Below, one piece after another: positions 3,800-32,908 of a stretch of 64,000 bases of DNA. Position 1 is the first letter of the stretch. The number at the start of each line of letters is the position of its first letter. This stretch comes from Eukaryota sp. GEM-RC1 (taxonomy: Eukaryota). The stretch lies in the NCBI GenBank assembly GCA_040285855.1, contig JAUFOQ010000006.1:558001-622000 (forward strand), in the 5' to 3' direction. Made by a program: the position numbers and the translations under genes. The notes beneath the pieces were generated by a model. It was not told where the DNA came from and did no database searches. It saw only the letters and a list, made by a program, of their open reading frames with translations.

Positions 3800-4149
3800 T
3801 GGAAAGCAAAAGGATTTCTCTTTTTGATTGATTAATGACTGTTGACGTCATTTTGTCTTTGAGAAGATCAGAACAATGAAGCTCCTTCGATGGTATTTCC
3901 AAGAACAACGTCTATTTTTGAACTACAAAGTATTCGAAATTGCTTTGTATCATCTCATTTCTTGATTGAGTGCCAACCAGGTCTAGGTTTGATGTATAAG
4001 CCAATGTGACGGTTTACAATTTATTAAATTGATCGAACTTCACTCAAACTCAAATCAAATTTAGACGAATTAATCAAGTAATACAGTAATAAAACTAATG
4101 AAAAAACTACAAAAATAATAACTTAGAAATTTTAATCATTAAGGTCATT

Positions 4150-5271
4150 CTAATGATTCATGTTCTTTTCATCAAGCAAAACTCCATTTAATTCATAGAT
4201 ATCCAAATGCAATGACTTCCGAATATCCATAAACATTTGAAGACCTTGTTTTTCAGGAGGACTTGGACAAATCATTAGAGCTAAGGGCATAGGTTCAGCA
4301 TCATCACGAAGAGGCGGTAGAAGATAAATCACATTCGATGGCAGCTTAAACAAACGGAAACCACATCTCTTGTAAAACCCAATTCTCCTAAGAGCCATAT
4401 CTTTCCCTGCTTCATCCTCCATATACTCAGGGAGCTCCACTTCCAGTACTAATGGATGACGAGTGTTTGTGTTTAGTACCTGCTTCAAGCATCTTAATAC
4501 TGCTTTACCAACACCACCGTTTCTGAATTGTTTAGATATAGCAAACAGTTCAACGAAATCATATTCTGGAGTTCTGAAAAAACTAATTAGACCAACTCGT
4601 TGCTTTTGTTTTGTATGTATCAGAAGCATGTAATAACAAGCTCTGTGTGATTTTGGTCCTTTCTTTATTAAATCCCAATGTACGTGTGGTTCTGGAAACT
4701 CTTCAGGTGGGAATGATGTCTGCAGTAATGAATGGGAGTAGTCCAACTCCGATCTATTAGAGACAACGGTGAAAAAGAGAGTGTTGGTGATACGTTGTGT
4801 CTTGTTATTGACTAGATTAAAGCCAGATCCAAAGAAAACGCTGGAATATAGTAGATTGAAAGTAATTGTCGTGTAAATGTCAATGATATCATCGTAGTTT
4901 TTAGGCAGTGGAAAGAAAGCGAAGTGACGGTAGACTGTTAGGGTGTCAATGGTTAGAGCTAGACAAGCAGATGTGCAGAGAGGGACAGACAGTACAAGAG
5001 GCGATGTGTGAGCGGAATTAAGACGAGCTTGAAGTGTCGATAAGAGGAATTTGAAGACAGCTTCAGAAAGAAAATTACCAGCCACAGCGTCCGACGTTGA
5101 GTGATTAGTAGTGAATTGAGAGATGTAAAACGCATTTTCAAGAGGAAGTATTGAGACATCAATGGAATCAATCGACCAATCTAGGTCTGGATTGAGTTCA
5201 ATAGTTTCAGTATAAGGAGATAGATGGTCAGGTATTGATCCATTTATGAAGGGGCAGTGGAATGAAGGCAT
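4150..5271 (-). CDS. GNAT-family N-acetyltransferase domain protein (copy 1)
   Basis: FAISKQFRNGGVG acetyl-CoA motif A, LVLEVE, RRIGFYKRCGF; ATG at 5271 matches the start of copy 2; the upstream ORF extension lies in a hAT end. Confidence 0.8.
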   Translation of the reverse strand: MPSFHCPFINGSIPDHLSPYTETIELNPDLDWSIDSIDVSILPLENAFYISQFTTNHSTSDAVAGNFLSEAVFKFLLSTLQARLNSAHTSPLVLSVPLCTSACLALTIDTLTVYRHFAFFPLPKNYDDIIDIYTTITFNLLYSSVFFGSGFNLVNNKTQRITNTLFFTVVSNRSELDYSHSLLQTSFPPEEFPEPHVHWDLIKKGPKSHRACYYMLLIHTKQKQRVGLISFFRTPEYDFVELFAISKQFRNGGVGKAVLRCLKQVLNTNTRHPLVLEVELPEYMEDEAGKDMALRRIGFYKRCGFRLFKLPSNVIYLLPPLRDDAEPMPLALMICPSPPEKQGLQMFMDIRKSLHLDIYELNGVLLDEKNMNH

Positions 5272-5291: not shown

Positions 5292-6462
5292 TAGGGCTGT
5301 CAATTTCTCCCATTTCTCCCAACTCCCACCCAACTCCCATCTCCCATGACCCTTGGGAGTGGGAGTGGGAGCTTCAGTAGCAATTTTTGGGAGTGGGAGT
5401 GGGAGTGGGAGCTCTCCGTTGGGAGGTGGGAACTCCCAAAATCTCCCATCTCCCATTTACAGACACAACTCTAACTTCAATTTAAAACAGAAACAAGCTA
5501 GCTAGACAAATACAGTTATAATTTTTCTAGAATATTAATAGGACTAGGTTTATTACATTTTTACTGTCTTTGTTTTGTTTTATTTATTTTCGTTTTATAA
5601 AGAGCGTGGTTGTTTATCTGTAAATTTCAACCAATGTCATCGCTTGATTTATCTGAAGATCCTGAAAACTCTGGTCTGTTTAAACATCCTGATTTTATTG
5701 AATTTGTTTCCTCTCTTTCAGTTTCAAAATTCCAAAAAGAACCACGATAAGAAATGATATGTTGAATGTTTATGAGTCATTTAAAGGATACTTGATAGAT
5801 AAATTCAAAAATGTGTGTAATTCTTCTAAAGTATCTATTAGGATTGATAGATGGACATCGAATACAAACAAGCATTTTAATGGGGTAACAGTTCACTGTA
5901 TTGAAGACTGGAATTTAAACATTTACAATGTACGTCCACGGTTTTAAGCACCTGAAAGAAAACCACACTGCCATCAACATTGCCGATGCTGTGGAAGAAA
6001 TTATTACTGAATTTGGTTTAAAATACAAAATGTGTTGTGTTTCAACAGGTATTCACGACTATCCGCATACATTGTATGCTAAGAACTTTATGACAACACA
6101 AGCCTCATCAGTTCCAAGTGAACAGTTATTTTCTCAGGCAGGGTGTGTTGTTACGAAGTTACGAGCATCCTTGAGTAGTGATTCTATTGAAGCAGTCCTT
6201 TGTTTGAAATCATGGTTCAAAGGTCGGGAGATGAGAGAGTTGTTCATGAATCAGAGATAGAGTTAGTGATTGTTATGTTTATAAAGTAAAGTGTCATTGT
6301 ACTAGAAGATACAAAAATGGGAGTTGGGGGGGAGTTGGGAGAATTTGTTGGGAGTGGGAGTGGGAGTGGGAGTCTCACCTATGACAAGTGGGAGGTGGGA
6401 GTGGTAGTGGGAAAACACGTGTTGGGAGTGGGAGAAACTCCCATCTCCCATTAACAGCCCTA
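5292..6462 (+). mobile_element. Internally deleted hAT DNA transposon
   Basis: TIR TAGGGCTGT/ACAGCCCTA, perfect 8-bp TSD CTGTTGAT, subterminal GGGAGT repeats, transposase remnants (IDRWTS; ASSVPSEQLFSQAG...LCLKSW). Confidence 0.92.
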
Positions 6463-7038
6463 CTGTTGATGCGATCAAAAAGAGTTCCCTCATCAAAACT
6501 AGAATGTTTTTCCATGTTCCTCCACTCACCAACACTTCTCAACTCCATATTCACCTTGGTCATTTGCTTCGTCTTAGAATTCTTCATCATCAAATTCAGG
6601 GAATTCAACAGGTTGATACCCTCTCTCAACACTTGCTAACCAATTGCGACCATTGCTTACTCTGTTTCCCCGTCCTTGTTGCAATGATGTCAATTGTCAT
6701 CTTTATCTTCCCTGGTGGATTATCTTAGTTCTCAAGAAAGACGGTTTTTTGCTGTCTTCATCTGCATATGTCTGATCTGGTGGGCCAAGAAGATCTGATA
6801 GACAATGGTGTATATAAGAATTTATCATTGTATATCAGTACATATAGTTGTCTTTGGCATGTGACTCACATGCTGTGAGTATATGTTCCAGACGATCTCC
6901 TGTCTTCAATGTCAGTTCTCGAGCTGTTTCCCAATCTGCTACATGGATGATGGTCCAGAAGCTCAAGCATTAACAAATCTAAAAATTTAAAATATTCCAG
7001 ATTTTTAGTCAAACAACGTTCATTTAGTTAGAATCATT

Positions 7039-8159
7039 CTAATGATTCATGTTCTTTTCATCAAGCAAAACTCCATTTAATTCATAGATATCCAAATGCA
7101 ATGACTTCCGAATATCCATAAACATTTGAAGTCCTTGTTTTTCAGGAGGACTTGGGCAAATCATTAGAGCTAGGGGCATAGGTTCAGCATCATCACGAAG
7201 AGGCGGTAGAAGATAAATCACATTTGATGGCAGCTTAAACAAACGGAAGCCACATCTCTTGTAAAACCCAATTCTCCTAAGAGCCATATCTTTCCCCGCT
7301 TCATCCTCCATATACTCAGGGAGCTCCACTTCCAGTACTAATGGATGACGAGTGTTTGTGTTTAGTACCTGTTTCAAGCATCTTAAAACAGCTTTACCCA
7401 CACCACCGTTTCTGAATTGTTTAGATATAATAAAGAAATCAACGAAATCATATTCTGGAGTTCTGAAAAAACTTATAAGGCCAACTCGTTGTTGTTGTTT
7501 TGTATGTATCAAAAGCATGTAATAACAAGCTCTGTGTGATTTTGGTCCTTTCTTTATTAAATCCCAATGTACATGTTGTTCTGGATACTCATCCAAATGA
7601 AATGAAGATTCAAGTAATGAATATGAGTAGTCTAACTCCGATCTATTAGAGACAACGGTGAAAAGAGAGTGTTGGTGATACGTTGTGTCTTGTTGTTGAC
7701 TAGATTAAAGCCAGATCCAAAGAAAACGCTGGAATATAGTAGATTAAAAGTAATAGTGGTGTAAATGTCAATGATATCATCGTAGTTTTTAGGCAGTGGA
7801 AAGAACGCGAAGTGACGGTAGACTGTCAGTGTGTCAACGGTTAGAGCTAGACAAGCAGATGTGCAGAGAGGGACAGACAGTACAAGAGGCGATGTGTGAG
7901 CGGAATTAAGACGAGCTTGAAGTGTCGATAAGAGGAATTTGAAGACAGCTTCAGAAAGGAAATTACCAGCAACAGCATCCGAAGTTGAGTGATTAGTGGT
8001 GAATTGAGAAATGTAAAACGCATTTTCAAGAGGAAGTACTGAGGCATCAATGGAATCAATCGACCAATCTAGGTCTGGATTGAGTTCAATAGTTTCAGTA
8101 AAAGGAGATAGACGGTCAGGTATTGATCCATTTATGAAGGGGCAGTGGAATGAAGGCAT
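7039..8159 (-). CDS. GNAT-family N-acetyltransferase domain protein (copy 2), 1-nt indel near 7660
   Basis: Near-identical to 4150..5271; A4 versus A5 run explains the split into ORFs 7632..8159 and 7039..7596. Confidence 0.8.
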
Positions 8160-8169
8160 TCAATCACTA

Positions 8170-8310
8170 CAAAAAGTATTTAAGGAAATTCTTCAGTCTG
8201 TGAATTTCTCTTAAGATGAATTCCCCATAACGAATTATGGACATTCATCTACACTCACAGTGCACATGGGCTGTGGCGGTTCTATCCCTTGCGGGTCCGC
8301 CACTGTTTCT
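8170..8310 (-). ncRNA. Candidate Fanzor omega RNA scaffold overlapping the Fanzor stop codon
   Basis: Minus strand: GUGGCGG..CCC-GCAA-GGG..CCGCCAC (GNRA loop), AGAUGAAU..CCAUAA-UUCG-UUAUGG..AUUCAUCU (UUCG loop), UUAAG-GAAAUUC/GAAUUUC-CUUAA hairpin; position matches TnpB/Fanzor omega RNAs. Confidence 0.65.
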
Positions 8311-11256
8311 GTTATTGAATCTTCATTGTTGTTTGTACTCTTTGCTGCTCTCTTCCGTCTTTCTTCAGCTAACTTGTCAGAGAAACACATTGGTCGATCC
8401 TCACCAGCGAGAGTACACTCAACAATCTTTAGAATATTCAAACAGCTATTGAAGTCTCGATTCCAGAGTTTATGACATTTTTTACAACGCACTAAACCCC
8501 AACACTTGACTTCATCGGGCTCTTCCTGCCACAACAGCTTATCATCTTCGTCCGTCCAACTAGACCAATTCCTCAGCGCTAATAGGCGATTTGCCTTCTT
8601 GTCAACTCTTCGCTTCTTCTTCCGGAAGTTTGGATCCTTGACTTTAAGGAAGGTTTCCGTTTCCCCTTCGTCATTGTTGTTCTCAGAACATCCGTGGCAC
8701 TGAAGAGATGTCCTGAATTCGTTAACCAGAAGAACCTGATAGCCAGCTTTTTTGAACAACTTTCTCGATCCTTTCCCCATGGATGGAGGCTTGTATTTCC
8801 TATGCCTTGACTGACTCCAATCACCTATGGCCAACCACGTATTGGTTGGATCTCCGTAAACTTGACGGAATCGATGGAGCATTTTACGTTCACTTTTTTC
8901 CTTGTATACTGATTTCCAATAGCTCCATTTGCGCCATTTAGATTGATGGTACAGAGACTCCATTCTATTTGCATACTTGTAGAATTGTTGGACGTACGCT
9001 TTAAATTTTGAAAAATTTGTTGTTTTGGAAGTAAATTCTGAAAATTCTGTCTGAATCTGTTCAGCTGTCAGTTGTCTTCCTGAAATTTCGTTAAAAGAAT
9101 AGTTTTTGAAGGCTTGGTTCTGAAGTACATTGTATTTTTTTTGTTTTCCTTCGTGCCTTCGAGTTCCTTGAGTATATCTCATTTTTTTGAATTGATTTTT
9201 CTTTTGAAGTGGTCTCTTTTTACTTGATTTTTTGACCTCATTATTCTCTTTTTGGAACTGGGCTTTATGCCTTTTAATTTCTTTCAATCTCTTCTTTTCA
9301 TATGTTTTTGAGATTTTTGGGTCAAGTGGGGAGCACAATGCCCAGGATTATCAATTTCTTCCTGGGTTTTTCTTCCAACCAAGTACAGAATATCCCATTG
9401 GTTAGGGTCCCCCACCACGACTTTTTTTATTTTTTAAATCCTCTAATTTTTCAGGATGTAAATCTTCCACATACTCCTCTTTTTCCTCCGGAGACTTGGC
9501 AGAGTATGGTTTGAACAGTAGATCATTTCTGGTCATCATGAGACTGATTGATTCACCATTGGTAGTTATCTGGTGACCAAATGAATACATCTTTTTGAAG
9601 GTGTTCAAGTATTTGTGATCAAGATTCAAATACTGGCTCCAAATTTGATTTTTAAATAAATTAATGTTTTCGCTTAGATGTTTTCGATTATAACCTTGAA
9701 CTTGAGGTTTAAATAAATTAATCATAGCTAGCGTATCCAATCGAAGGTGATCAGGAATTAAGCTGGTGGATTGTGGAAACATGCGGTACATCTTTGGTGG
9801 AATCTCATTACAGGAAGGGTTATTCTCAATCAATTTGTTGAGAACGAAGGCCTCTGGTAAGAGCTCCAAAGGCTTTACCTTTAATTGGTATTTGAGTCCT
9901 TTAGAGTCTGGCTTAAAGTTTTTGACAAATGTAATGAAATTTTGATGTTCATCTGATGGATTTTGCCAGATCTCGGTAAAATCAATATCGGATCCTCTGC
10001 CTTCTAAAATTTCTTTAAGGATATTATTGGACAACTTTTGCAACTGGTCTTTTTCGACTTTTTTTAAGTGCATTGTTTTTAATAATTTTTAGTTGTCCAT
10101 TTAAATTAAAGAAGAGTTCCCATGTTTTTTCCAAATATTCAATAAAACGGGATGAAATATTATTTTGATACATTGTAACAATCTCAGTAGCTGTATAATT
10201 CAATGTACGAGACATATCAGAGTACATGACATTGGGAATTTCCATATCCACGGGGAGAAGAATTTGGATATAGAAGCATCCCAGTTGAATTTTCAAAGCA
10301 TTGTGCTTTTTGCCTGGAGTACTTTGAACAATCTCAGTTACCCATTTGAGAATTTCACTTCCATCAATATTTTCCTCATTTTTAAATCTTTGATGAGCTA
10401 ATGGAGACAAGTATCCAATAGTCCAGAGCAATTGTTGGACACTCTCTTTGGTCCATTCTACTGGATTCAATTCCTGATTATCAAAAGAGTTCATGCAAAA
10501 GCCTTGAAGTAGCAGCAATGCACGTTGTTTAATTCGGTGATGATTTATAGAAATTTCATTTACCAATATGTTGTTATCAGTCCACACAGATTTTAGGGTT
10601 ACTTTAACCGTTTTTTCACCCGGGCATCTTAGCAATTCTTGTGTTTCGACTTGAAGGAAATACACAAAAAGGCTTTGTAATTCAACAATATCGTTAAAAT
10701 GTTCACGTAAACATTTCAAGTTTTGTTCAGATGTGAAATCTGTAGAAACTGGTGTGGGAACTGAATAACTTTCATTTTTTAAAATGTTCTTTACAACAGT
10801 AACCCAATTCAAAGATTTTCCAGTTCTAGGTCTGTAATAATTTCTAATAACACGGCCCAAATCTATTAGCTGAATTTTTGAATTTTTGAATTGTTTTAAA
10901 AAATATTTGTAAAAGAGAGGACACTGAATATTTGAACAATTCTCTGATTTTAAATTAAATTCATCCAACGTAGAACTTGCATCATAACCAATTATCAGAC
11001 CACAGTCAGTTAAAACTAAATAATCATTAAACGCACTAATCATAGATTCCTCTTGATTAAACGCTTGAACATTCACTCTAGCATGCTCAGAATTAGGTGA
11101 CAGAACTGAATCGCAACTTTGTTGTGTAGTGAATATAATTGATTCTACAATTGAAATTACTTGGTCCTGGACCTGAACTGTTTGAGTGATTATTGATGTG
11201 ATTATTATTTTGTCTTTTTTCTTTTTTAGTTTCTTTAGTAGCTGCTGAAGCTTCAA
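8235..11256 (-). CDS. Fanzor1-type (eukaryotic TnpB/OMEGA) RNA-guided endonuclease, split by homopolymer indels
   Basis: RuvC-I VVVGDPN (D at 9407-9409, in a frame missed by the ORF track), LAIGDWS, RuvC-II LVNEFRTS, zinc finger CHGC...CKKC, RuvC-III WNRDFNSCLNI; upstream ITTNGESIS and YQNNI segments resemble Fanzor1 N-terminal regions. Confidence 0.88.
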
Positions 11257-12160
11257 TCATTTTTACAAAAATGCATTTAATCGAGTGTTTGTGATCTAAC
11301 ATTAAGGTTACGTTTTCGAAAGGATCTTTTCTTTTTTTAGACTTAACTGGTGATTCTTTTTCGTTTGTTTTTTCATTTGTTTTTACTGCCAATGGGCATT
11401 TTCTTATATCATGACCAGTGTTTCTACACTTTGAACATTTACGCCCAATTGGTTTTTTCACCAGTTGAGGTTCGTTTTCATTATTATTGTTTGATCGTTT
11501 TTGTTTTCTTGGAGGCATATTGCTGACAGTGGCAAGCCTTTTTCCTGGATTAACGTGGCTGTCCAGTTTCAAGTTCAATCTGATACGAAATTGAGAGGGA
11601 TCAAATTGATGATGCATAATTTCATTTTGAAAATCTGTCATCATTATACAGTGATCAATGTGACCAATTGTTTCAACATTAAATGTCTTAAATAATACTT
11701 CAATAAAAAACAGAACAAATATGCCACAATCATAACCATTGTCCTGTTTCACAGTATTAATGTGACAATGGTAAAAATGGTTTGGGCAAAACGATTGTAT
11801 AAAATCAATTTTTGAGGACAACAAATTACTATTAGAGATAGAATCCATGAAGTATAACGTGTCAGTCATGAAATCTATAACACATAGTCCCCAGTGAGTT
11901 CCAGCAAATCCGTCAATAATACCATTGTTCATGAGAATAAGAACAAGCCGACAATCTGCATTTTTTTCTCTTATATCATGATAAATAACATCTTTCTCTA
12001 CCGTTAGAAAGTTATATACATGATAAAAATCCAATAGTTTGATTGGCGAGTGGGTAATCCAAACTGATATGATTTATGGAAAAAGAAGGTGGAATAGCTC
12101 TAACCATTCACATTCAGACAACAATGTTATGTCTTCAAATTCATGTGAGTTAAATGATAC
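11093..12160 (-). CDS. C48 (Ulp1/NEDP1-SENP8-like) cysteine protease plus CCHC zinc knuckle; probable N-terminal part of the Fanzor polyprotein
   Basis: DITLLSECEWL, GTHWGL (His), YFMDS (Asp), QDNGYDCG (Gln/Cys); CSKCRNTGHDIRKC knuckle at about 11394..11443. Confidence 0.82.
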
Positions 12161-12184
12161 CGGTCCGGGATTCGACTCGATATC
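12161..12184 (-). other. 2A-like ribosome-skipping (StopGo) motif DIESNPGP
   Basis: LFVVDLTNDGDIESNPG|P exactly matches D(V/I)ExNPGP with a preceding G and a hydrophobic upstream segment. Confidence 0.85.
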
Positions 12185-12409
12185 ACCATCGTTGGTTAAA
12201 TCTACCACAAACAAATGAATCAAACAAAATTTGAAATTGTGTTTATTCTCCAAATCAAAAGTGAATTGCTTTTGTCGAGTTTTACAACAAGACACGGACC
12301 ACTGCGGTATTAACTCATCAGGAGTTGCAGATATCAAGCTGTTAGCCTCTTCTCTGCAACTGCCCTGAGTTGTTAATCCTGGGTTAGGGCCGTAGTCCCC
12401 ACCCAAATT

Positions 12410-12694
12410 CATAACTGAAAGGACGGAACTTTCAGTCTCAACTGGATACAAAACATCCAGCCGAGGAGGATTGGAACCTCTTATAGTGTTAGGAGGATTG
12501 GAACCTTCCTGAACACATAACTGAAAGGACGGAACTTTCAGTCTCAACTGGATACAAAACATCCAGCCGAGGAGGATTGGAACCTCTTATAGTGTTAGGA
12601 GGATTGGAACCTCCTGAACACATAACTGAAAGGATGGAACTTTCAGTCTCAACTGGATACAAAACATCCAGCCGAGGAGGATTGGAACCTCTTA
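12410..12694. repeat. About 2.7 copies of a 105/106-bp tandem repeat rich in hairpins
   Basis: Units start at 12411, 12517 and 12622; near-identical; encodes 35-aa RGSNPPRLDVLYPVETESSVLSVMCSGGSNPPNTI on the minus strand. Confidence 0.95.
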
Positions 12695-13693
12695 CTGTGT
12701 GAGACATCAACAAACCTGATGGAGTCATGAGACGGAAATAAGTCACTGTCGACATTGTTATTGATTGTTCATCACTTTCCTCTCAGCAGGATTCCGTTTC
12801 ATAGGGGATTTTGATTTTACCAACAGTTTTCTTTTCACTTTTTACTGCTACTGATGCAGCTTTCTCAGGTATCAGCGTCTTGCTAGTCCTAACACGCTGT
12901 GATTGACTTACTTTCTTTCTTGAAGGTGTTCGCTATATATGCACTGACTGGTGCTACAGGTCTTATTGCTGTCTTCTATGATGCTGTTAGATTTAAGGAA
13001 TACGAGCTTCTTCTCATTCTGGCTTTTGGAATTCTTTCACCATTTGCTGAACTTGTCTGCAAGGACGACAATAGCTTCGACTCTTCTTCAGGTCTAGAAA
13101 TCATGGTTAAGTTGCTGCGTTGTGTACAAGTGGTTTATGTCTTCCTATAATGCTATTCCACATTGACAATATAGCCGCCATCCCTCTAACTATTGATTTA
13201 AGCGGGCTATGCTTTTCTACTCCTCGGTATTCATTTTTGTTGAGAAAGTTGCTCCTGACAACGACTCCTTTTAGTTCCTGTTTTGTTCATTGTAGATAAA
13301 CTCAATCAAACAGTATCCATTTTATCTTCGTATCCGTCTCTTCCTTATAGTGTCTCTGTAATAGTGTGATTCCTTTGAGTGTGGGTATACACTTTTGACA
13401 TGATCAATGCTAAATATCACACATCAGTCTTGTTACTTGTTCTCTTCTTAAATCAAGACGCTCTTTCATACCCTAGATAAACAAAATGATAGCTATGGAT
13501 TGTACAGAGTTTATTGATTCTATACATCTAGATAATGCACACAAAACTTAAACGTTGCAAAACGGAGGTGTTAGTGGTATCAAAAGAAAGCTGTCACATA
13601 AACCTATGTCTGTATAAAACACATCACATTTTAACAATGTCTACAAGGAGACATTGACATTTGACATTTGTATTGGCTATACGTCGTCAGCAA

Positions 13694-15931
13694 ATGTCAC
13701 TAGCATTCGGTTTGGGCAAAAACAAATTCTTCAGTTGTTCCCAAACCATTCCAACAAATGCTCCTTCTGCAATGAACTTACCGAAATTTGCAGATTCAGC
13801 CAATGTCAAGGTCGTTACAAGATGTCGACCTGTTGTCAATGATAAGTCTGTTGCACAAATATCTGGTGACACCATTACTTTGTCAGATAATTCTACTGAT
13901 GAACCTATAGAACGTACTTTCCAGTTTGACAAAGTCTTTCCGAGTAACACGGACCAACCTGAGTTTTTCAACGATGTTGGTAAAGAACTTTGTGATGTTG
14001 TTCTTAACGGCTTCAATGCTTGTATTCTTGCATACGGTCAAACTTCTTCAGGAAAGACCTACAGTATCGTTGGAGAATGTCCCGAAACCAGGGGCATTAT
14101 TCCTCTCTCCTGTGAATATCTCTTCTCCCAAGCAACTAGACGATCTCCTTACTTCAATGTTACCATCTCAATGTCCATACTCGAGATCTTTCTCAACCAA
14201 ATGATGGATCTTGGTCGGGAAGCTGTCCAAAAGCTCAAAAACTTTCCATCATCTCGGATTAGTTACTCTCCTGCTGCAGTAATTCCCTCCCCAGCACCTC
14301 CTTCCTACTCACAGGATGACGTTTGCATCCCTCCTCCTCCAATGGTGCGTCCTGCTTCTGCCAAAGATCCATCGACCTTCTCTCCTCCATCGCAGAACCT
14401 TGTTATCAGGGAAGAGTCGAAAGGAAAAACACATCTTCATGGACTAGCTCAAATAACAGTCACTTCAATCGACGAAGTCTCTAGAATTCTCACTGAAGCT
14501 CTTAAAGTACGTCATTCAGCTCACACACTTCTCAATTCCCACTCTTCACGTTCTCACCTCGTGGTAACCTTCTCTGTTACTCAAACCTCCATCCGCAACA
14601 CCTCCAACCAAGCAGCAATCACTGGAAGTCTATCCGTAGTAGATCTAGCTGGCAGTGAGCGTATCAAGAAGAGTCATGGAATGGAGGTGACTACAGAACG
14701 TAGAAGGGAAGCCGCTAGTATCAACTCAAGTCTTTCCGTCCTAGGAAACGTAGTATCATCACTTTCTGGAGGTAGCTCTCACGTTCCCTTTAGAGATTCA
14801 AAACTAACACGTGTTTTACAGTCATTGGGGTTAGGTCAAGGTGGTAATTCTTATATTATACTGTTAGCAACTCTATATCCATTGGCTGCTCACTTTTCTG
14901 AGACTCTGAATACGTTAACCTTTGCTAATAGGTGTTTGGCTATTCAGACTGGTCCGAGAGTTAATTATAATCTTTTAGATGAGCATTCTTATCAATCTAA
15001 ACTACGTGAGCTGCAGGATACGATTGTCCAAATGACTGGGAAGATCAATCAATTACAAGAAGAGCTCAGCGAACGTGATGAAAGATTACAAATGAAACAA
15101 AGTATGGGTGTGGTTGAAGGTCAAAAAGATGACGTTAATTTGAACTATGATGATGTGGCAATGTCACGTCAAGCGATTAATACAATCAATAAGCTCGAGA
15201 ACAGGTTCAGGACTGCTCAGGGTAATAACGTTGCTGCTTTAGTACGGCAAGTTCAACGGACGTTAAAGTACAAGAATGAGGTTGTTGAGGTGTCTGATGA
15301 AAATTCACGACTTTTGAGCGAATCACGTGAGCTTTTGAGCCGGCAGAATGATTTGTATCAAAGTGAATTGTCCCATGCCTCTCAGTTGACTGCTGAATTA
15401 ATGCATCAATGTGATGAACTGAAGACAAAACATCAGTTAGAGGGAATTAGAGCACAAACTGCTATTCAATCGTCACGAAGTGGTTTGCTGTCGAGTAATT
15501 TTAAGAGTTCTAAAAATTTAAATAATTCAAAAGTTGATGGAGTCACGAACTCTAATTATAACAGACTCTTGGAGCAAAAAGACTCGGAGATCGCCCAGTT
15601 GAAATCACAAATCAGTCAAATGCAATCAGGTCACGATACTCAGATTAAATCAATTTCAAAAGAGGCTCAAAAACTGTTTAAATTAATGAGGCAACGTGAT
15701 AGGGTCATTAATGACGTCATCACCGGTCGTCTATCAGATCATATTCATTTTGGTGGTATTAAAGGCCGATTTCTTGATTTGCCGGTCAGTCAGAAACCTG
15801 CCACTTTCAACGTTTCTGAGTTTAAAGAGCTCTATAAGCTGACGTCATTGATTAGTGATGACGATAGGATATTATCGGTTCCAAATTTTAGAAAAAGAAG
15901 ACCGAGGTCAGCTGCTCCGTCGTGGGTTTGA
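13694..15931 (+). CDS. Kinesin motor protein with C-terminal coiled coil
   Basis: VVTRCRP, FQFDKVF, P-loop AYGQTSSGKT, NSHSSRSH, VDLAGSE, HVPFRDSKLT; start could also be ATG 13772. Confidence 0.95.
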   Translation: MSLAFGLGKNKFFSCSQTIPTNAPSAMNLPKFADSANVKVVTRCRPVVNDKSVAQISGDTITLSDNSTDEPIERTFQFDKVFPSNTDQPEFFNDVGKELCDVVLNGFNACILAYGQTSSGKTYSIVGECPETRGIIPLSCEYLFSQATRRSPYFNVTISMSILEIFLNQMMDLGREAVQKLKNFPSSRISYSPAAVIPSPAPPSYSQDDVCIPPPPMVRPASAKDPSTFSPPSQNLVIREESKGKTHLHGLAQITVTSIDEVSRILTEALKVRHSAHTLLNSHSSRSHLVVTFSVTQTSIRNTSNQAAITGSLSVVDLAGSERIKKSHGMEVTTERRREAASINSSLSVLGNVVSSLSGGSSHVPFRDSKLTRVLQSLGLGQGGNSYIILLATLYPLAAHFSETLNTLTFANRCLAIQTGPRVNYNLLDEHSYQSKLRELQDTIVQMTGKINQLQEELSERDERLQMKQSMGVVEGQKDDVNLNYDDVAMSRQAINTINKLENRFRTAQGNNVAALVRQVQRTLKYKNEVVEVSDENSRLLSESRELLSRQNDLYQSELSHASQLTAELMHQCDELKTKHQLEGIRAQTAIQSSRSGLLSSNFKSSKNLNNSKVDGVTNSNYNRLLEQKDSEIAQLKSQISQMQSGHDTQIKSISKEAQKLFKLMRQRDRVINDVITGRLSDHIHFGGIKGRFLDLPVSQKPATFNVSEFKELYKLTSLISDDDRILSVPNFRKRRPRSAAPSWV

Positions 15932-16752: not shown

Positions 16753-17310
16753 CATGGAACGCAAATGTTCCGTACCGCGGCGATTTTAGGCGTACCGTAC
16801 CGTACGTATGTACGTATGGTACAAGTACCGGTACTGTACTTTTGACCGACTAATTAATACTTTTTTGAAGATGATAATCCAATGTGAGATTTTAACAGTT
16901 ACCATCGTAATACATTCTACTGTTAAACAAAGCTCAGGATATCAAGATCGTGACTGTCACACTTGTCCAAATTTAAGGTACGTCATTTGCTGACCACAAC
17001 TTCCCCAAAATAACATTTCTACGTCAGCAAACACACGAAATCCACAATAGTAGTAGCGTCTTGGAATCACAATGCATTTGACGAGTGACTACGACGTAAT
17101 ATAACAATGATAAAGGGCCCAAAAACCCACAGATTGGATTTCGAAACGATCAGAAGATGCAGTACCAATTTGAACTAGTACTGTGTTTGACTAGTGAATG
17201 AACCTCCACTTAAAAAATAGTATTTATAAATCCATTTAGAATATTCATAAATGGACTTTTTATAAAATCAAATGACATCGGTACGGATAAAATAAATCGG
17301 TACGTACCAA
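16753..17310 (+). mobile_element. hAT-type MITE family A (CATGGAACGCAAATG end), right end truncated
   Basis: Homologous to the copies at 26218, 29969 and 63938. Confidence 0.8.
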
Positions 17311-17402: not shown

Positions 17403-19760
17403 CTACAACAATTTTCGTCGTTTCAATCGATCAATAAATTCATGGTCTGCTAATTCATCAAGCAATCTTTCCCAGTGACTTGCCGTGTCAAAATCACATT
17501 GGGTTCCAATTCCTTTCATATAACACAGTATAACTTCTTTCACCCCATTTTCATTATTCAATTCTGCTGACTTTTGGAAACAGTTCAAAGGCGATTTGAT
17601 GGTTTTGATCGACCCCAGTACCATTCTTATACCTTACACCCATGATACACATTGCAACTGAACATCCATGATCAACCGCCATCTGAAAATATTTGATTGC
17701 CTTGTCGAAGTCCCTTTCAACTGCGTCTCCTTGTAAGTAAACATATCCTAAATCAGTCATTGCACCAGCATTGCCCAACTCAACAGCATACCTCAACAGT
17801 TGAACACCTTCTTCGAGAATTTGATCGATTCCATGGCCATATCTAAGACAATTTGACAACCAATAGAGACCTTCAGAATTATTCAGATCAGCGGACTTGT
17901 TAAACCAATTGAATGCTTGTTCGAGGGATTCATCGACACCTATACCATCATAGAAACAATATCCTATATTAATCATACCATAAACATGTCCCAACTCAGC
18001 AGATTTTTTAAAATAGTGAGCTGCCTTTTCTAAATTCAATTCAATCCCTAAACCTAAATAATAACAGCACCCTAATTTAAAAATTGATTCAACATGATGC
18101 AAATTTGCAGCTTTTAAAAAGAGCACAAATGATTTATCATAGTTTTGTGTTACTTCGTTTCCATTAAAGAAATCCATTCCCAATGAAAACAGAACTTCTT
18201 CCACTTTTTTCGTCGGGTCAACAAGATTCTCCAAGACGTTGATATCATTCTTCTGGGACGACAAGATCTTCAGTGACTTCGTGGCGACGTAAGAGTTGAT
18301 GAAAGATTTAAGGGCTTTGTCAGTATTTAATTTCATTAAAAAAGATAAAAACTCAAATTTGTTTACATCATCAACAGAAATGGACTTCACACAAAGAATA
18401 AAAGAATCAATTGTCCAGGACAGGTTGAATTCTTCAGAATGTGTCCAGGAATTGACCAGACATCTTCCTGACCATAAGCCATAATCACTGGGCAGATTTT
18501 GACAGAAAAGTGTAAGACACGTGGGGGAGAAACAAATATTGTTTTCATTCGCCAAAGACTCAGGAGAGTTGACAGAAGGAAACACTTGACAAAGAAACTT
18601 TAAATGTTTTTGCAAAAGTGGGGTTCTATCAACGTGGCGTAATAATATAAGAAACCAAGAAGCTGGAATATTCCTAAAGTTCTGTACATTTTTGAAAATC
18701 CTCAAAGTCCATTCAACCAATGTGGTTCGGAAATCCGGATTCTCAAATAATGGAACCAAAATATCAAATATATCAAATAATTGGGTTTCCGAAATAGTTA
18801 CGATATTCAATATTGAAGCCAATTCCGTATCCAAAAAGCCTGAATTGTTATAAAGTTTCATTAAACAATTGAACATCCAACGCGTATCAATAAAAGGAAT
18901 CAAATACACGATGAAAGAAACTCTTAAGGGAATTGGGTTTTCCGTGACATTTGAAATTTTAAATATTTGGATATTTTCCTTTAGAAAATAGAACTGATTT
19001 CGTTCGCTGGAAATCTGCAGTAGATGAATCAAATCTGGTTCTGAAAAACTATTATTTAATAGAAACTGACAACAAGCCAATTTAAGATCATCAACTTGGA
19101 AATACACTGATAATTGGAAAAAATCCAAGATATTTGGAAACAGTTAATATAATTGATTGAAAGTGGAATAGATCAAAAAACTGTGAGAAAGTGTCTTCAG
19201 CAACACCTGGAAATTGATCAGAGTATTCAAAACTTCGCACATCTGAATCTGCAAATTCACAAGTAAAGGAATTATAGAAAAAACTGGAAAATAAAGACAA
19301 TAAAACAGAATTCATCATACATGTGGTATCCTTGTAAGAAACACGCACGTCACTAGGCCGTGATTCGACAATTTTGGAAATTATAACCATTGAATCCAGT
19401 TTAAAATTGTTTTCTTTTAAGTTGTCCAGTCCCTTGGCCATTCTCTCGGTAACAAACTCACTTAGCTCCTGGAACTGGAAGCAAAGAAGCAATGATGGAA
19501 AGAGGGGGAAGGGATTTAGTAGTGACAGGTAAACAATGACCATAGAAAGTAGATAAAACCAAGAAGAAAAGGTCAGGATCTGAAAGAAAAGGAAGTGGGG
19601 GAAACTCTACTGAGGAAGATCTAAACAGTTTTTCTTTGAGAACAGAACTGAAGGTACTTGCAACGAAAGAATGACAATGAAAAGGAACATCATCAAAGAG
19701 GATGATAGTGTCTGTGAGAATATTGTCCTTTTGAAAGAGTGCAGCTTGTTGCAGAAACAA
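17403..19760 (-). CDS. Tandem BTB/POZ-domain protein with C-terminal Sel1-like repeats, several frameshifts
   Basis: LTDTIILFDDVPFHCHSFVASTFS and NSVLLSLFSSFF...FADS (BTB-like); repeated LG.CY..G.G......A Sel1 motifs; may extend upstream to about 19990. Confidence 0.75.
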
Positions 19761-23380: not shown

Positions 23381-25757
23381 CTATCCGTGTGACAAATGAA
23401 ATTTGTAATTCTTATTTGTGTGACAAACATGAACATTATAGATGGGAGCCGGCTCAAATTTTGCTCACGGCTCAGCTGCAGGTACTAGTTAGCCGGCTAT
23501 GGCTTCCAACATAGTTTAGCCGGCTCAAGCCGGCTTTAGCCGGCTCAGCCGCAATGAGTTTGATGTAGATTTATTGTTTAACTGTTTTGTCAAAGCATAT
23601 GCTTTCAGTGTCTTCTCTTTGATAGATTTGTTTTATGTGGTTCATTATTGTTATACACAAATTCTACCCTATTCTTCAATTATCGCTACTCTACTCATCG
23701 TCTTTCTGATCTTCTTCGTTCAAAAGCCAGCACCGCAAACACATTAATGCAGTTACCGTGGTGTCATCTAACCGGGAACGCTTCTTAGTTATTACGTTAC
23801 CAGTTTGTGAAAACAATCGTTCACTACTAACGGAGGTCGCTTGAACAGCTAACATATCCCTTGCAAATTTGCTCATCAGAGGAAAGTTTTCAGAGTTTAC
23901 TCTCCACCAATCTAAGGGATTGTCATTCTCGGCCGAAAACATAGAAAGATACGTATCTAACTCCTTTTCAACTGATAGATCCTCAGAGTCAGAACGTTCA
24001 TCTGTGGTACTGTTCTGGGACACAGATTCTTTGATGATCTTAAGCTTAGCTCTGAAGGATTTGGTCTTCTTTCTCACTTCTCTTCCTCCATTTTCACTGC
24101 TATACTCCTCCTGAAGGCGTGTTAATAGCAGATGTCTAACTTCCTGCAAGTTCACATGCGTTGGCCACATTAAAGGACTTAACTTGATAGACGGATCCAT
24201 CACAGTTGCAATCTTGGTCGTGTCATTCAGTACATTGGCATCGTACTTAGCAATGATTTTCTTCATAAAGATGCTACAAAAACCGGTTACTTTGTTTGGA
24301 TATACCTCACTCAATTCCTGCATCTTTTTGTGCAGGTCTGACTTCCGGCGAATATTCTCCAATTCTGCCAAATTGCTGTTTAGTACTCCTTGGCCAAATT
24401 TGGCAATTTCAACATCTAGCACTTCTTTTATGGTTTCCCAATACAGAATTGTATGGGAAATTGTCACGTCAGATGCAGATGAAAGATCGGTTGTGATATC
24501 ATAGAATGGTTTCAACAGTTTCAACAGCTTTGACAATGTTACTGTTTCAAAGTCAGATAATATTAGTTCAGTAATTTGCTCATTTTGTAAGAAGTAATTA
24601 ATGATAGCCAACTGGTCGTGATACGTTTTTAGCATGAGATATGTACTATTCCAGCGAGTAGGAACGTCAGAGGGAATTCTTTGAAATTTTTGCCTGTGTC
24701 TTTGGCGCAAGTTTTGAGCTTTTCATTCAATGAACTGGACATATGGGTTTTAGACGTCAATTTTTGAATCTTAAGTATACTGGCTTGTATAAAGGGCAAT
24801 CCATTCTGGACCATGATGTTTAAAACATGAGCAAAGCATCGCTGATTTTCAGACCTTTCGTTCAGTAAATCAACTGCATTCACAATGTTCCCAGCATTGT
24901 CAGTTGTCCATGATTGTGTCTTGGTTTGAAGCCCATAATCAGCAATAATGGTGTTCAGTTTCGCTGAAATCATTTCTGCGGTATGCGGAAAAGGCAAGTA
25001 AGTTGATGTTCATTGTTGATGTTCATTGAACATCAACTTTTATCCGTGTGACAAGTCATAGTGTTTTGTATATTGAATAGAACATCTTGTCGTGCAAATA
25101 TCAGGAAGCAAATGTTCCTGAAGGAATGCTTTGAAGCATGACTCTTGGGGTTGTTCAGAGATTTGGGACTTTTTGGTTCGAAATGTATGATTCATCAAGT
25201 AGTGTAGACTTATAGTGTGTCAATTAGTGTACCGTTGTCAGATGGGATGTAGATGTCTTCTCTGAACACTAAGAGAGGTTTCAGAACACAAACAAAAAGT
25301 TGAATCCGGTTGGTGTACAGCTTCTAATGTTTCGGAAGATCTTCATCGCGATAATGATAGTTCATATTAACTAAGACGTATCAGTTTCAACGTTTGAGTA
25401 GTGGTCTACGATTCAAACTAAACAGAATCAATGTTTCTGCCTACAAGTCAGAGTATAACTACTATAAAGCAAGCATCACAACCCTTGCAAAGACACACAG
25501 AAAATCGTCAGAATTTATGGACAAAATAAGAAAATGAAGTTGTGTAGAAGCTAGAAGGTTAAAAGATGCTTAAGAAGACAGTGAGTCCATTACACCTTAG
25601 ATACAGATGTGTGATGTGAAGGTTTTACTAGTAGGTAAACTGAGAAGATGATAGCAAGATAACTTCCGTCTAGGTCTATATGTGGTGTCTTGGTAAAATC
25701 CAATTCAAATTCTGTCACACGGATAAGAATTCCAAAATTCATTTGTCACACGGGTAG
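23381..25757. mobile_element. TIR element (about 45-bp imperfect TIRs CTA(T/C)CCGTGTGACAAATGAA) containing a nested hAT fragment
   Basis: 23381..23425 is the reverse complement of 25713..25757 with few mismatches; no TSD seen. Confidence 0.65.
23691..24997 (-). pseudogene. hAT transposase, 5'-truncated, one frameshift
   Basis: TTDNAGN, CFAHVLN, DVPTRWNS, PLDWW, ATSVSSERLFS dimerisation domain; AGCCGGCT subterminal repeats at 23447-23550. Confidence 0.9.
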
Positions 25758-26217
25758 ATCTACCCCATGTTTAGATACAAAAATACAGATACAATGACAT
25801 CATTGGTCACAAGATTCTACTGTTGACGTAGCATTGTACTTCTGATTGTTGTCCAGATCTAGAGCTAATGATAACTGGACATCCCAAGATGGATCATTCC
25901 AATGCTACCAGACCAAATGGCTCAGACTCTGACGGCAGTAGGAAAACACTTGCTGCTGAGAAAGCATTAGTTGTCTCTTCTCTAGAGAGAAATCCAATTA
26001 GGACAATCTGTTTGTTCTCAGGGATTCAATAACGGGACATTGTGTTGTTCAGCCGAGTAGAGTACTCACAGGCAGAATGCCCACTGCCACAGATGATTAC
26101 AGGTCGGTGTTCTTCACAAATACTGCAGCATACCTGCAGCATTTTGTTAAATAATTCTGCGTGGCCTAAAAATGTACTAATACATATACAGTACATGAAC
26201 TGTATGTAGGTTTATAC

Positions 26218-27506
26218 CATGGAACGCAAATGTTCCGTACTGGAGCGATTTGAGGCGTACCGTACCGTACCGTACCGTAAGTACGTACGGTACAAGTGCC
26301 GGTACTGTACTGTTGACCGACTAAAATACATTATAACTATTTTGAACATGATGATCCAATGTGAGATTATAACCATACCTGGAAAATACACTTTTCTGTA
26401 TTTTCTGTATTTTTGTATTTCGTGTATTTGTATTTTTTATTTTTTATTTTTCAGTATTAAAATACTGTATTTTTTTAGGAATACGTTTCTGAACTTACTG
26501 CCTGTAAAGTACCTCTTTTGGATGTACATGTAGTTCTTTTATCTCCAATTTTTCTTCATATGATTTATAGAAGTAAATAAAAACATGATGTCAATCAACA
26601 TACAAGACGAAGTAGTTGTAGCAGTTTATTTGCAACCAAAACAGAAAACAGATGAACAAACTACAGTAGTCTCCTGGATTAGGTCGAGGAATAATTGGAG
26701 GAAGAATTGCTCCTTGATTGTCTTTCTCCAAAGGTAGGACACATAATACGTGCCAAAACCTGCCAACAAGACCAAAAGCAGAATTGAGTCTGACCAGGAG
26801 TGACAGACAATTGATCAGTCTCTATTTACTGAAGGAATTATAGTTTAACTTAAGTATTAGTAGAAACGAATCTAAATACATGTACATGTAGGCGATCATT
26901 TAACATCATTGTTGTCGATGTCCACTACTAAAAATACAGATAATATAACATCATTGCCTTTGTATTTTTGTATTTTAATCTGTATCTGTATTTTTGTATT
27001 TTTGTATTTGTATTTTGTTCAACCCTTGTATTTTCCAGGTATGATTATAACAGTTACTTGGTCATACATTCTACCGTTAAACATCACTCGGGATATCAAT
27101 ATCGTGATTATCACACTTATTCAAATTTAGGGTACATTGTACGTCATTTGCTGACCAGAACTTCCCCAAAATGACATTTCTACGTACGAAGCTCAGCAAT
27201 TGCCCGAAAAATCAACAATAGTAGTAGCGTCGTCGAATCACAATGCATTTAACGAGTGACTACTACGTTATATAACAGTGATAAAAGGCCCAAAAACCCC
27301 CAGATTGCATTTTGAAACGATCAGAAGATGCGGTAGCAATTTGCACTAGTACTGTGTTTGACTAGTGAATGATCCTCCACTTAAAAAATAGTATTTATAA
27401 ATCCATTTAGAATATTCATAAATGGACTTTTTATAAAATCAAAGGACACCGGTACGGATAAGACAAATCAATACGTACGGTACGTACCAAAGATTTGCGC
27501 ACATTG
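26218..27506 (+). mobile_element. hAT-type MITE family A, complete, with nested MITE
   Basis: Imperfect TIRs CATGGAACGCAAATG / ATTTGCGCACATTG; 8-bp TSD GTTTATAC. Confidence 0.9.
26374..27043. mobile_element. hAT-type MITE nested in family A
   Basis: Perfect 17-bp TIR CATACCTGGAAAATACA; 8-bp TSD ATTATAAC; TGTATT subterminal repeats. Confidence 0.92.
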
Positions 27507-29968: not shown

Positions 29969-30771
29969 CATGGAACGCAAATGTTCCGAACCGCGGCGAT
30001 TTTAGGTTTACCCTACTGTACTTTTGACCGATTAACATACAGTCAACTACCGAATAGAGCCCCTTCCGCATATGGCTCTATTCGGTAGTTTTTTCTATGA
30101 AAAGGAGCCATAATCAATACAGGGGAGGAGTTTTTTGACTTTATGCTCATAAATAGTCAGATAATAAAAAACAGTAAATAATGATTTTATTTAATGTTAT
30201 ATATGAATACGTCAAATAATAAGTTATTTTCAGGAACTGGCTCTATACGGTAGGGCTCAAATTTAGAGCCCCTATCAGTTGGGGCTCTATTCGGTAGGGG
30301 CTCTATTTGGTAGTTGACTGTATATTAGTACTAATTTGAACTTAATAATCCAATGTGAGATTTAAACAGTTACCATCGTCATACATTCTACCGTTAAACA
30401 TAGCCCATGATATCAAAATCACGATGGCCACACTTATTTAAATTTAGGGTACATCATTTGCTGACCACAACTGTCCCAAAATGACAATGCTATATACAAA
30501 GCTCAGGAATCGCATGAAAACAACAATAGTAGCATCTTCGACTCACAATGCACTTAACGAGTGAATGGTACGAGATATAACAATAATAAAGTTCCCAAAA
30601 CCCAAAGTAACTCTAAACGATAAGAAAATGCAGAAGCAAATTGTAATAGTACAGTGTTTGACGAAACAATGAACCTCCACTCCAAAAATAGTATTGTAAA
30701 TTCATTTAGATCATTCATAAACACGACTTTATATTAAATCAAATGACGGAACCAAAGATTTGCGCACATTG
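29969..30771 (+). mobile_element. hAT-type MITE family A with nested Tc1/pogo-like MITE
   Basis: Same termini as the 26218 copy; 8-bp TSD GTACTAGG. Confidence 0.9.
30040..30320. mobile_element. Tc1/mariner-pogo-type MITE
   Basis: TIR CAGTCAACTACCGAATAGAGCCCC (1 mismatch) with TA TSD. Confidence 0.9.
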
Positions 30772-31639
30772 GTACTAGGACAAAAGGTGGTCCCAAATCC
30801 AAAACAGACTGTGTGTATTTTCTGTAGATAAATACAATCCTGTTATAAAGTTATGAATGACACAGACTGAAGGAAAGTACATCAAAAGCTAAAGCCTACT
30901 AGAAGTAGTGTACTGCTACTTTAGACTTGCCCAAAGTAATAATATATTAATATAAAATATTGTATTACAATCCACTCTCAGACTGACTTTGACAAGTCAG
31001 TTTTTCAATGGGTGGTAAATATAAAGAGAACTTAGATTCTGAGTGCTGCTGATGATCGTTCCTTGTCACATGGATGTATTGTCACTGTTGGAACGAAAAG
31101 CAAATCTCTGGAACACAGAATTGTAGGATCCAAACTATCAACCGTTAGAACCGCTACCTATTGTGATGTGATTGAAACACTCCTGCTGGTGTGGGTCCAA
31201 ATAATGTCCAAATCTACAAGACCAAGCACTTTGGGCGCTTAACTTGATCAATTCAGTTTCAGACATCAGGATGGACGATGGATTGATCAGGAACCCGCTA
31301 CAATGTTGTTGTGATGTCAGATATAATTTGAGATAGTGGACTGATCAGAACTATTGGGGATAGGGAGCAATGCTGATGGCAGGATGGTCGTCAACAGCCC
31401 TTCGCTACTTCGTGGACCGTGGCAGCATTCACAACAGAAAATGTGCGCGTGTCTCTCACAAAACAAGTTGTATGGGCAAGGACCAATGAAAGTGAGCGCA
31501 ATGGGGTATCAAATTGAATGCATGATGAGGTATACATATGTAGAAGACTACTACTGCAAGCAAAGTAGTAGTAGGTGAAAGTGTAACACAAACCCAGTTA
31601 GTAACCTTCACGTATCGAATTTGATTGTTAACCGCCCAT

Positions 31640-32908
31640 ATGTTACCTCTCAAAGTCTCAAAGTGTCTTAAACCCCACAAGTCAATCTTACAACGATTCA
31701 AGATCGTCGTTCTGCTACTGACTGCACTGTTTCTCCTTTTGGTTGTGGTCCTCCAACTGAGTGATGTTACTTCTACCACTGGAGATACTTCGCATCAGTT
31801 ACCACCGGCAAGTCCAACCGTAGAACCTCATTCGAATAACCCTCCTCCATTGAGACAGTTCCTCCGTCTTGAATCTATTATGGATGACCAAGTTACTCTC
31901 ATTAGCGCATCTCTTGCATCAACCGAGCGTCTTGTTGTTGTTGGCTTTCATCATTACAAGAAGCCAATCACTTCCTTTCATTGCTCCATCTTGGTTGGAG
32001 AATGTTCCTTTCTACAGAAAAAGGGCACAAACAGGTATAATGTGCGTTACGTCTCGTTCACTCTCCACTTTAAAATTCAGGTGCCTGACTTGTCATCCAT
32101 TCAGTCAGTTTCCATAACTCCAGCTGGTTCTGCCTCTGCTGTTTCTGTTCCAATAAATCCCCATGTTTCTTACAATCTAACGGCGTGTCTTCCTACCATG
32201 TTTAATATGAATTTAGAAAGAGTTGCGGATTGGTTAAACTATTATCACAATGAGTTTCAAATGGAATCTGCAATTCTATACGTTTTGCCAAGTTTTACTG
32301 AGCAAAATTATACTGCTCTGATGGAATCTATTACATAGAATTTAGACATTGTAGTTCTACAGCAACCTGCATACTTGAACAATCGTAAAGATTTTCATTA
32401 TTTAGGACAATACCAAGTAATTCACGATTGCTGGATGAGGTCAATGGGGTCAGAGTTTGTCTTCTTTCCGGATTATGACGAGTTTCTTACTTTCTTGTCG
32501 CCTTTATCAATTTATGATTTATTTACTTCTGAAATTGGATCTGTTTCTTTTGGGAGTCAGTTTTACTCAACTAAGTATTGTTTTAAAAACGATTTCAGTA
32601 TTCCAGTTACTAAAAGAATGCCTATTCCTATAGATCCTTTCCCAGAGTGTAAAGACAGTAAGTTTGATCCTTTCAATTGCCCGCAACAACACGGAAGGAG
32701 GAAGTTCATTGCTAGACCAACTGTGATTGGTGGTTTAAACCTTAATTCGTGTTCAATTATTGAGGACAAATTTGACATATTGGATCTTGATGCTCGTGTT
32801 GCTGTTCTACGTCACTATAGAGGATATATACGGATTGACTTAGACGTTTGTACAAAATTGTTATCATCATCTCATTACAAAATCAAAGTGTCATCACGTC
32901 ATCATTAA
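31640..32908 (+). CDS. Type II membrane glycosyltransferase, GT92/DUF23-like; in-frame TAG at 32336-32338
   Basis: N-terminal TM helix, LTACLPTMF..WLNYY, GQYQVIHDC, DYDEF (DxD), RKFIARP, HYR; the two ORFs are in the same frame. Confidence 0.7.

Follow-up and report, generated by a model that had tools for sequence, protein, structure and literature searches.

The question raised by this locus is whether a 2A (StopGo) peptide fixes the N-terminus of a chain that joins a protease to a Fanzor nuclease, as a preliminary description made from the DNA alone had proposed. The window analysed is the whole 64,000-nucleotide stretch of Eukaryota sp. GEM-RC1 (contig JAUFOQ010000006.1, positions 558,001 to 622,000), and the features of the element described below lie on its minus strand. 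Other copies were compared as annotated proteins, from records named Eukaryota sp. GEM-RC1. StopGo peptides have been described in RNA viruses and in non-LTR retrotransposons, and also in a small number of cellular genes.

The 2A motif and its position

Positions 12223-12161 of the minus strand encode LIHLFVVDLTNDGDIESNPG followed by P, with VSF coming next, which is a canonical StopGo/2A peptide of the DLTxDG class as defined in the available text of PMC12846837. It is the single occurrence of D[VI]ExNPGP within the six frames of the window, where the count of GD[VI]ExNPGP expected by chance is 1.2e-6, and the canonical 2A of the preliminary description is thereby confirmed. The core (D/G/C/N)(V/I)ExNPGP reads DIESNPGP at 12184-12161 and in 6/6 other copies, and the predicted skip falls between Gly (12166-12164) and Pro (12163-12161). 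The motif shares its frame with an ATG at 12412, 83 codons upstream of the skip site, and with the protease, a stop following 29-30 residues past the Pro in 7/7 copies. In a PDB search, the alignment with SENP1 (E 0.02) opened at residue 11 when the skip-site Pro is numbered 1, which places the start of the protease about 10 codons past the Pro, close to the 8 or so first estimated. Looser D...NPG matches number four against 0.23 expected per window, three of the four being in the frame of the 2A. Conservation and frame in other copies had been set beforehand as one point on which the claim could fall; GDIESNPGP proved to be in frame in all six other annotated leader-2A copies.

It had further been proposed that skipping would give the protease-Fanzor chain a defined N-terminus whatever the upstream frame. 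This holds in one respect: leader length to the skip Gly ranges from 153 to 197 aa among copies, a variation that skipping would cancel by giving the protease a fixed Pro start. With regard to frame it does not hold, since StopGo works via the nascent peptide (PMC12846837) and only ribosomes in the 2A frame would skip.

Expected activity of the peptide

Motif 4 in PMC12846837 consists of WV(R/K)DLTx[acidic]G preceding D, p15 being Ser, and is described there as showing almost 100% StopGo, an activity that depends on the upstream residues. The peptide of this locus shares with that RNA-virus motif the run D-L-T-x-D-G-D-I-E-S-N-P-G-P, including D at p12 and S at p15, and matches the motif 4 upstream class over 13 residues. 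DLTxDG occurs in 7/7 copies (the window and six others), and the family form FVKDLT[NK]DGDIESNPGP, present in 6/6 other copies, fits motif 4 except for F instead of W at -16, a replacement found in all seven. The six other copies also share K at -14 and V at -15 with the viral motif, whereas the window has V at -14, its VVDLT being private. The host differs as well, being a chromosomal DNA repeat and not an RNA virus.

In the supplement to PMC13405545, ATEWLRDLTKDGDVESNPGP was scored as skipping in a sort-seq library, and of the 18 rows listed several further DLT peptides, altered in register or core, were non-skipping. The exact peptide did not occur in four supplements each of PMC13405545 and PMC12338488. 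In each of thirty viral loci fetched with the pattern DLTxxGD[VI]ESNPGP the motif lies within an ORF of 310-2880 aa; none of these loci matches the protease, exonuclease-like or Fanzor pieces. Judged from near-identical peptides tested elsewhere, the family form would likely skip, with less certainty for the V variant of the window.

Protease, zinc knuckle and exonuclease-like domain

Downstream of the skip site lies a Ulp1/C48 cysteine protease (11690..12136, minus strand; PF02902, E 3.9e-10), which scores 40.4 bits against a cut-off of 20.7 and whose core is matched in the PDB by yeast Ulp1 and SENP8 (E 8e-5 and 1e-4, respectively). Its catalytic residues are intact (His 11896, Asp 11845, the oxyanion Gln 11746, and Cys 11728). 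It shares the His-Asp-Cys triad and a QxNxxDC-type motif with Ulp1 and SENP8 (clan CE, C48), and differs from these proteases in starting directly at the predicted skip site, with an RNA-guided nuclease downstream. Ulp1-carrying transposons exist, for example NeSL, MULE, Zisupton, and Ginger. Just past the protease, a motif scan located a third degenerate motif, DSHVNPG followed by K (11540..11563, minus strand), possibly a relic second skip site.

A CCHC zinc knuckle of the form CX2CX4HX4C was read directly at 11396..11437 (minus strand), where PF00098 matches below cut-off (E 0.045). It is followed by a PolB-type 3'-5' exonuclease-like domain (10690..11263, minus strand; PF03104, E 1e-4 to 2e-4, just below cut-off), which is split by a frameshift at A6-G-A6, about 11215-11230, and whose first catalytic motif looks degenerate. 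Atlas feature matches of 0.85-0.86 for this domain serve as a lead only, a PDB search with the exonuclease-like ORF gave no match, and the single-sequence predicted fold of the region reached a pLDDT of 33. Searches of NCBIfam and PHROGs returned nothing useful. The exonuclease-like domain is held, together with the putative start of Fanzor, in a 410-aa ORF (10024-11256).

Fanzor and the right end

The N-terminal half of Fanzor is assigned to 9405..10218 (minus strand) from its position and from weak matches to P0005 and P0006 (E 5e-4 to 6e-4). BLAST showed no similarity to P0001, and of the five representative-search matches P0003 and P0004 were set aside as repetitive and spurious. This half is split by a frameshift at the A7 run 10059-10065 and is found in the other copies P0002, P0007, and P0015. 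The RuvC-I motif VVVG-D-P-N (9401..9412, minus strand) stands in a third frame between two frameshifts, one at A7 (9422-9428) and one within 9347-9290, and in this shifted frame it reads DPN and not DPG, the diagnostic Pro being kept and the Gly replaced. The C-terminal half (8235..9347, minus strand; PF07282, E 4e-7) comprises the RuvC-II Glu, a split C4 zinc finger and NRD, matches P0001 (E 1e-15), and is found in three other copies. All three RuvC residues of Fanzor are present. Read across two frameshifts, the chain agrees with the pattern D-X(125,275)-[TS][TS]-XX-C4-X(5,50)-RD given in PMC3627910, with about 231 codons from D to TS, then RTSLQCHGC and CKKCHKLWNRD. The Ealt fingerprint described in PMC10711439, a RuvC-II Glu six residues before the zinc finger, is seen as EFRTSLQCHGC at 8720-8688. 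Its size and insertions, together with Pfam matches that include no serine recombinase, lead us to assign the protein provisionally to the Fanzor1 type.

Hairpins are predicted over and past the Fanzor stop (8165..8260, minus strand; z -2.75, with 2/200 shuffles equally stable), where they rank 9-10 of 92 folding windows. They are a candidate omega-RNA scaffold and right end, omega-RNA being located downstream of Fanzor according to PMC10432273; the region has no Rfam match. A host gene starts at 8159, beside these hairpins. It is the second of two tandem GNAT acetyltransferase duplicates (4145-5271 and 7034-8159, 95% identical), with a 1-nt frameshift in a T run and a start codon about 75 nt past the Fanzor stop.

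The folded leader

The 5' part of the leader ORF (12492..12755, minus strand) contains ATGs at 12755 and 12728, which are the starts annotated in other copies, where leaders begin with MTPSG or MSTVT. About three tandem 105-nt units (12410..12717, minus strand), each made up of four abutting hairpins, encode a 35-aa repeat; other copies hold two or three in-frame units per leader, and in the window copy a private 1-nt insertion near 12506 shifts the repeat frame. The 105-nt repeat region folds with z -6.6 (0/200 shuffles equally stable), and its minus strand, as DNA, folds better than the plus strand. A second folded segment, past the repeats and with the in-frame ATG 12412 (12300..12412, minus strand), has z -5.6. 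Among 92 folding windows over 8100-13700, the five best-folding all fall in 12300-12719, and the leader values of z -5.6 to -6.6 stand against z -1.3 for the 2A-coding stretch and z +0.25 for the protease start.

The preliminary description had noted a degenerate second motif, GGDYGPNPGL, some 70 codons upstream of the 2A, and this is present at 12403-12374 in the same frame, 71 codons away. As a second 2A it is not borne out. Compared with D(V/I)ExNPGP it departs at three of eight core positions (V/I>Y, E>G, and P>L), so that the near-invariant E and the last P are lost, and its DNA lies as a hairpin in the folded leader. The functional core variants listed in PMC12846837 contain none of the three changes. 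GGDYGPNPGL is probably not a working StopGo on these residues; the stretch may come from an old 2A, and the preferred reading is an RNA hairpin that forms part of a strongly folded leader. Both the MFE and the centroid structures close the hairpin (12374..12403, minus strand) with C(UACG)G, and a second fold computation returned the same stem, capped by a loop of 7 nt. Loops of the UNCG type are unusually stable. GGDYGPNPGL is retained in 7/7 other leaders, P0017 included.

Over 12480-12300, all three amino-acid differences among copies fit the fold (two lie in loops and one is a C>U change that makes a G-U pair); this count leaves out three positions that a deletion in P0011 throws out of alignment. 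A change at 12286, outside the strong fold, breaks one pair. In the sibling P0017, Ser>Gly and Leu>Pro force a change from A-U to G-C at one stem pair, with 7/8 pairs still possible, pointing to one compensatory pair in its modelled leader. On these small numbers, the leader looks to be under selection as RNA. Rfam and ARAGORN gave no match on the leader. A hammerhead, an HDV-like ribozyme, and a tRNA were each rejected, with neither Rfam nor ARAGORN matching and the cores incomplete by eye.

The loops of the leader hairpins in 12410-12717 read UUCCAAU, in five copies of GGTTCCAATCC. These hairpins have the geometry of a tRNA T-arm (5 bp in the stem, 7 nt in the loop) and, apart from one change, look like a Pol III B box; seven B box-like matches with at most one mismatch occur in the window, against 0.85 expected. 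Upstream of the leader, the minus strand carries broken Ser/Lys-rich reading-frame remnants at 12760-13300, and the left end of the element lies between 12755 and a kinesin gene near 13690.

Stop codon and frameshifts

The continuous protease-Fanzor product first described finds no support in the assembly, in which an in-frame TAA (12074..12076, minus strand), beside a T5 run in the N-terminal part of the protease and 29 residues past the skip site, is joined by four frameshifts that leave the chain in five ORF pieces and three frames. In order, the pieces are the 2A frame to the knuckle, 10024-11256, 9402-10088, a short RuvC-I piece, and 8235-9347. Three of the four frameshifts fall at A6-A7 runs. 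In P0002 and P0007 the frame changes at an A run across which the window stays open; the RuvC-I frameshift is common to the window and P0015. The TAA is family-wide as annotated, standing at the same place in the window and in five of the six other copies (LLFP-stop); the sixth, P0016, ends in LLFHK, 30 residues past the skip site.

One shift at the TAA cannot rescue the protease, as either alternative frame runs into a stop within about 25 codons; readthrough, a point change, or two compensating indels would be needed. A PDB search with the alternative-frame 31-mer at the stop gave no match. An intron across the TAA was rejected: of 12 GT-AG candidates, one keeps an open frame, and it loses the WL motif and has a poor donor. 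A non-standard genetic code is ruled out by long ORFs that end in all three stops. Among 1125 candidates there was no fused protease of 572-2000 aa, which is weak evidence, and the searches showed no copy whose 2A-protease frame is open, the expected 446-571 aa lying between two length filters.

Short-read correction of a nanopore assembly is poorest in repeats. Homopolymer slips arise in replication too, at the same positions as expected from sequencing error, so that the location of the breaks does not show the copies to be intact. R9.4 nanopore reads with Illumina short-read correction underlie the assembly of the named copies (PMC11316075). Host genes break likewise at T runs, as in the GNAT paralogues (T5 vs T4), DnaJ, and 43551-46722, and one such break might be an intron. 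Frame changes at T runs occur in a DnaJ-like gene (50318-51254), a long helical protein (43551-46722), and a Sel1-repeat protein (17554-19606), which suggests residual assembly indels. These observations favour assembly error for some breaks of the element, but both assembly error and inherited decay are possible. In a separate case, an apparent single host gene at 31625-32905 has an in-frame TAG (32336-32338) with no GT-AG intron nearby, for which a pseudogene, an error, or readthrough is possible.

A multicopy family

The annotation contains six leader-2A ORFs (GEMRC1_011790, 011911, 012052, 003715, 007962, and 013702), each with GGDYGPNPGL and GDIESNPGP both in frame, and six Fanzor fragments (GEMRC1_007319, 013457, 011362, 003904, 011683, and 007621). 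By locus-tag number, none of the six fragments is near any of the seven annotated leaders, and the leader-Fanzor linkage is seen only in the window copy. Gene prediction was run after repeat masking (PMC11316075), and sparse, non-adjacent annotation is what this would produce. The seventh leader, P0017 (GEMRC1_008435, outside the window), is shared up to just before the 2A, has no canonical 2A, and continues into a different PolB-type exonuclease (PF03104, E 1.5e-5) with an intact-looking VDIET first motif; this has no similarity to the exonuclease-like ORF of the window, and its Atlas matches are leads only. A related element, sister or autonomous, is one possible identity of P0017; a mis-spliced gene model is another.

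Metagenome and viral scans returned no related loci. The ORF pieces of 8235-12782 have no Pfam or NCBIfam match to a reverse transcriptase (RT) or an APE/RLE endonuclease, and no transposase, TIRs, TSD or element ends were found at the locus; between the candidate right end and the left region, inverted matches reach 8 nt at most.

Comparison with known systems

A 2A near the start of non-LTR retrotransposon ORFs is reported for L1Tc, Ingi, CR1, L2, Rex1, and Crack (PMC3708506), in agreement with the preliminary description, and 2A-bearing ORF2p with DUB domains are described by Snell and Matreyek (bioRxiv 10.64898/2026.06.17.732966). Such elements share with this locus a 2A past a short leader, heading a mobile-element ORF that sometimes carries an isopeptidase domain. 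Their leaders are of 40-80 aa, compared with 83 aa (from the last ATG) or 153-197 aa (from the annotated starts) here, and in place of an APE endonuclease and an RT the present locus has Ulp1, CCHC, exonuclease-like and Fanzor domains downstream. Fanzor1c has been associated with a LINE (PMC10530073). Fanzor1 elements such as MCi-2 and CMe-1A (PMC3627910), which carry neither a transposase nor TIRs, have in common with this one the C-terminal Fanzor D...TS-xx-C4-RD, a variable 5' region, multiple copies, and no TIRs seen, whereas a 2A, a Ulp1 domain and a PolB-exonuclease fusion are not described in the available text of that paper.

In the retrieved text, the term 'protease' occurs 0 times in PMC3627910 and PMC10711439 and in the methods only in PMC10530073 and PMC10432273; 'Fanzor' occurs 0 times in the main text of three recent 2A surveys, and likewise in one supplement of a fourth. 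Among the papers listed by literature searches, none joins Fanzor with a 2A or a natural Ulp1 domain. Known, in sum, are the 2A at mobile-element ORF starts and Fanzor1 with exchangeable 5' regions, with no earlier 2A-Fanzor report found.

Proposed mechanism and alternatives

Taking the motif, its frame, its retention in the copies, the domain order at this locus, and the predicted leader fold together, we give an even chance to the reading that the window contains one copy of a multicopy Fanzor element, in which the 2A likely releases the leader and the protease-knuckle-exonuclease-like-Fanzor chain starts at a fixed Pro. Translation would enter in the folded leader, acting as a translation-entry or promoter element; StopGo would release the leader peptide, disposing of whatever peptide the RNA leader happens to encode; and the ribosome would restart at Pro to make the protease-knuckle-exonuclease-like-Fanzor product. 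The TAA and the four frameshifts would be homopolymer slips, either long-read errors or lesions of a master copy, and not part of the original design. The protease may remove SUMO or NEDD8, or cut the polyprotein, and Fanzor would be guided by an RNA from the right end, where the 3' hairpins are modest. The element, in which no transposase or RT was seen, would be moved in trans.

A stronger version, which we regard as doubtful, holds that the element is intact, currently spreading, and expressed in the manner of an RNA virus, its tandem-hairpin leader recruiting ribosomes, StopGo discarding the leader peptide, and all breaks being assembly errors. A sister element would use the same leader for a PolB-type exonuclease or polymerase, and a single polyprotein would run from a protease of the SUMO/NEDD8 type through a zinc knuckle and a dead exonuclease fold to an RNA-guided nuclease.

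If the proposed release of the leader is correct, Fanzors can be made from polyproteins, single-ORF Fanzor catalogues miss the true N-terminus and the bundled protease, and that protease may counter SUMO- or NEDD8-dependent silencing. The locus offers a natural StopGo test case in a deep-branching protist lineage and points to an undescribed structured RNA leader common to two element types. If the breaks are real, it is a fossil of a polyprotein design.

Of the alternatives, the one that survives best, although we consider it rather unlikely, is that the locus is composite, the leader, 2A, protease and knuckle forming the 5' end of a different, retrotransposon-like or PolB-carrying element and Fanzor being a passenger, separately translated or secondarily joined, so that the 2A is real but does not set the N-terminus of Fanzor. 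P0017, with the same leader on a different downstream gene, points in this direction, although it may be a mis-spliced gene model; so does the finding that annotated leaders and Fanzor fragments are never neighbours, although masking makes such annotation expected. Exchangeable 5' regions are known for the Fanzor families of MCi-2 and CMe-1A (PMC3627910), and a 2A near the N-terminus is a LINE feature (PMC3708506), sometimes accompanied by deubiquitinase domains (Snell and Matreyek). A search for a fused Fanzor of 649-2000 aa with such an extension gave one match, without the extension. Against a composite origin, the pieces in the window overlap, all on the same strand, and neither a spacer nor a repeat or TSD separates them; the exonuclease-like domain is joined to the putative Fanzor start in the single 410-aa ORF.

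It is improbable that the motif is a fossil or a chance match that does not skip and is carried in a dead, non-autonomous repeat family. Every copy seen is broken, the core motif alone is insufficient for activity (PMC3708506), and several DLT-type peptides in the library listing of PMC13405545 did not skip. Invariance of the motif among copies as young as these is not significant either (11 variable sites in 74, P 0.12-0.26), and selection on the 2A motif was accordingly rejected as a conclusion from invariance. The 13-residue match to a defined upstream class, a chance expectation for the core of 1e-6, and the placing of the motif exactly at a domain boundary all speak against this.

It is very unlikely that the TAA is a stop in use, with StopGo and a stop 29 codons on throttling a protease/Fanzor made at a low level by readthrough or reinitiation: its shared place in the window and five of six other copies, the alignment of SENP1 across it in the same frame (E 0.02), the lack of a convincing intron, the closure of both other frames within about 25 codons of a T-run shift, and the lowering of protein levels by many retrotransposon 2As (bioRxiv 10.64898/2026.06.17.732966) would fit, but it interrupts a folded domain, the RNA beyond it shows no structure (z +0.25), P0016 differs in frame at the site, and four further breaks would need explaining.

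Other features of the window

A hAT-type element occupies 5292-6461, with the TIR TAGGGCTGT, the 8-bp TSD CTGTTGAT, and a remnant of a hAT dimerisation domain, and a second transposase-like ORF remnant, hAT-looking by eye, lies at 23694-24722. A dispersed, non-coding-looking repeat family, 77-95% identical, is found at 16753-17307, 26215-27478, 29969-30747, and 63935-64000. An inverted pair of protein-kinase genes (33783-35885 and 37635-39748) is 94% identical, and both genes are intact.
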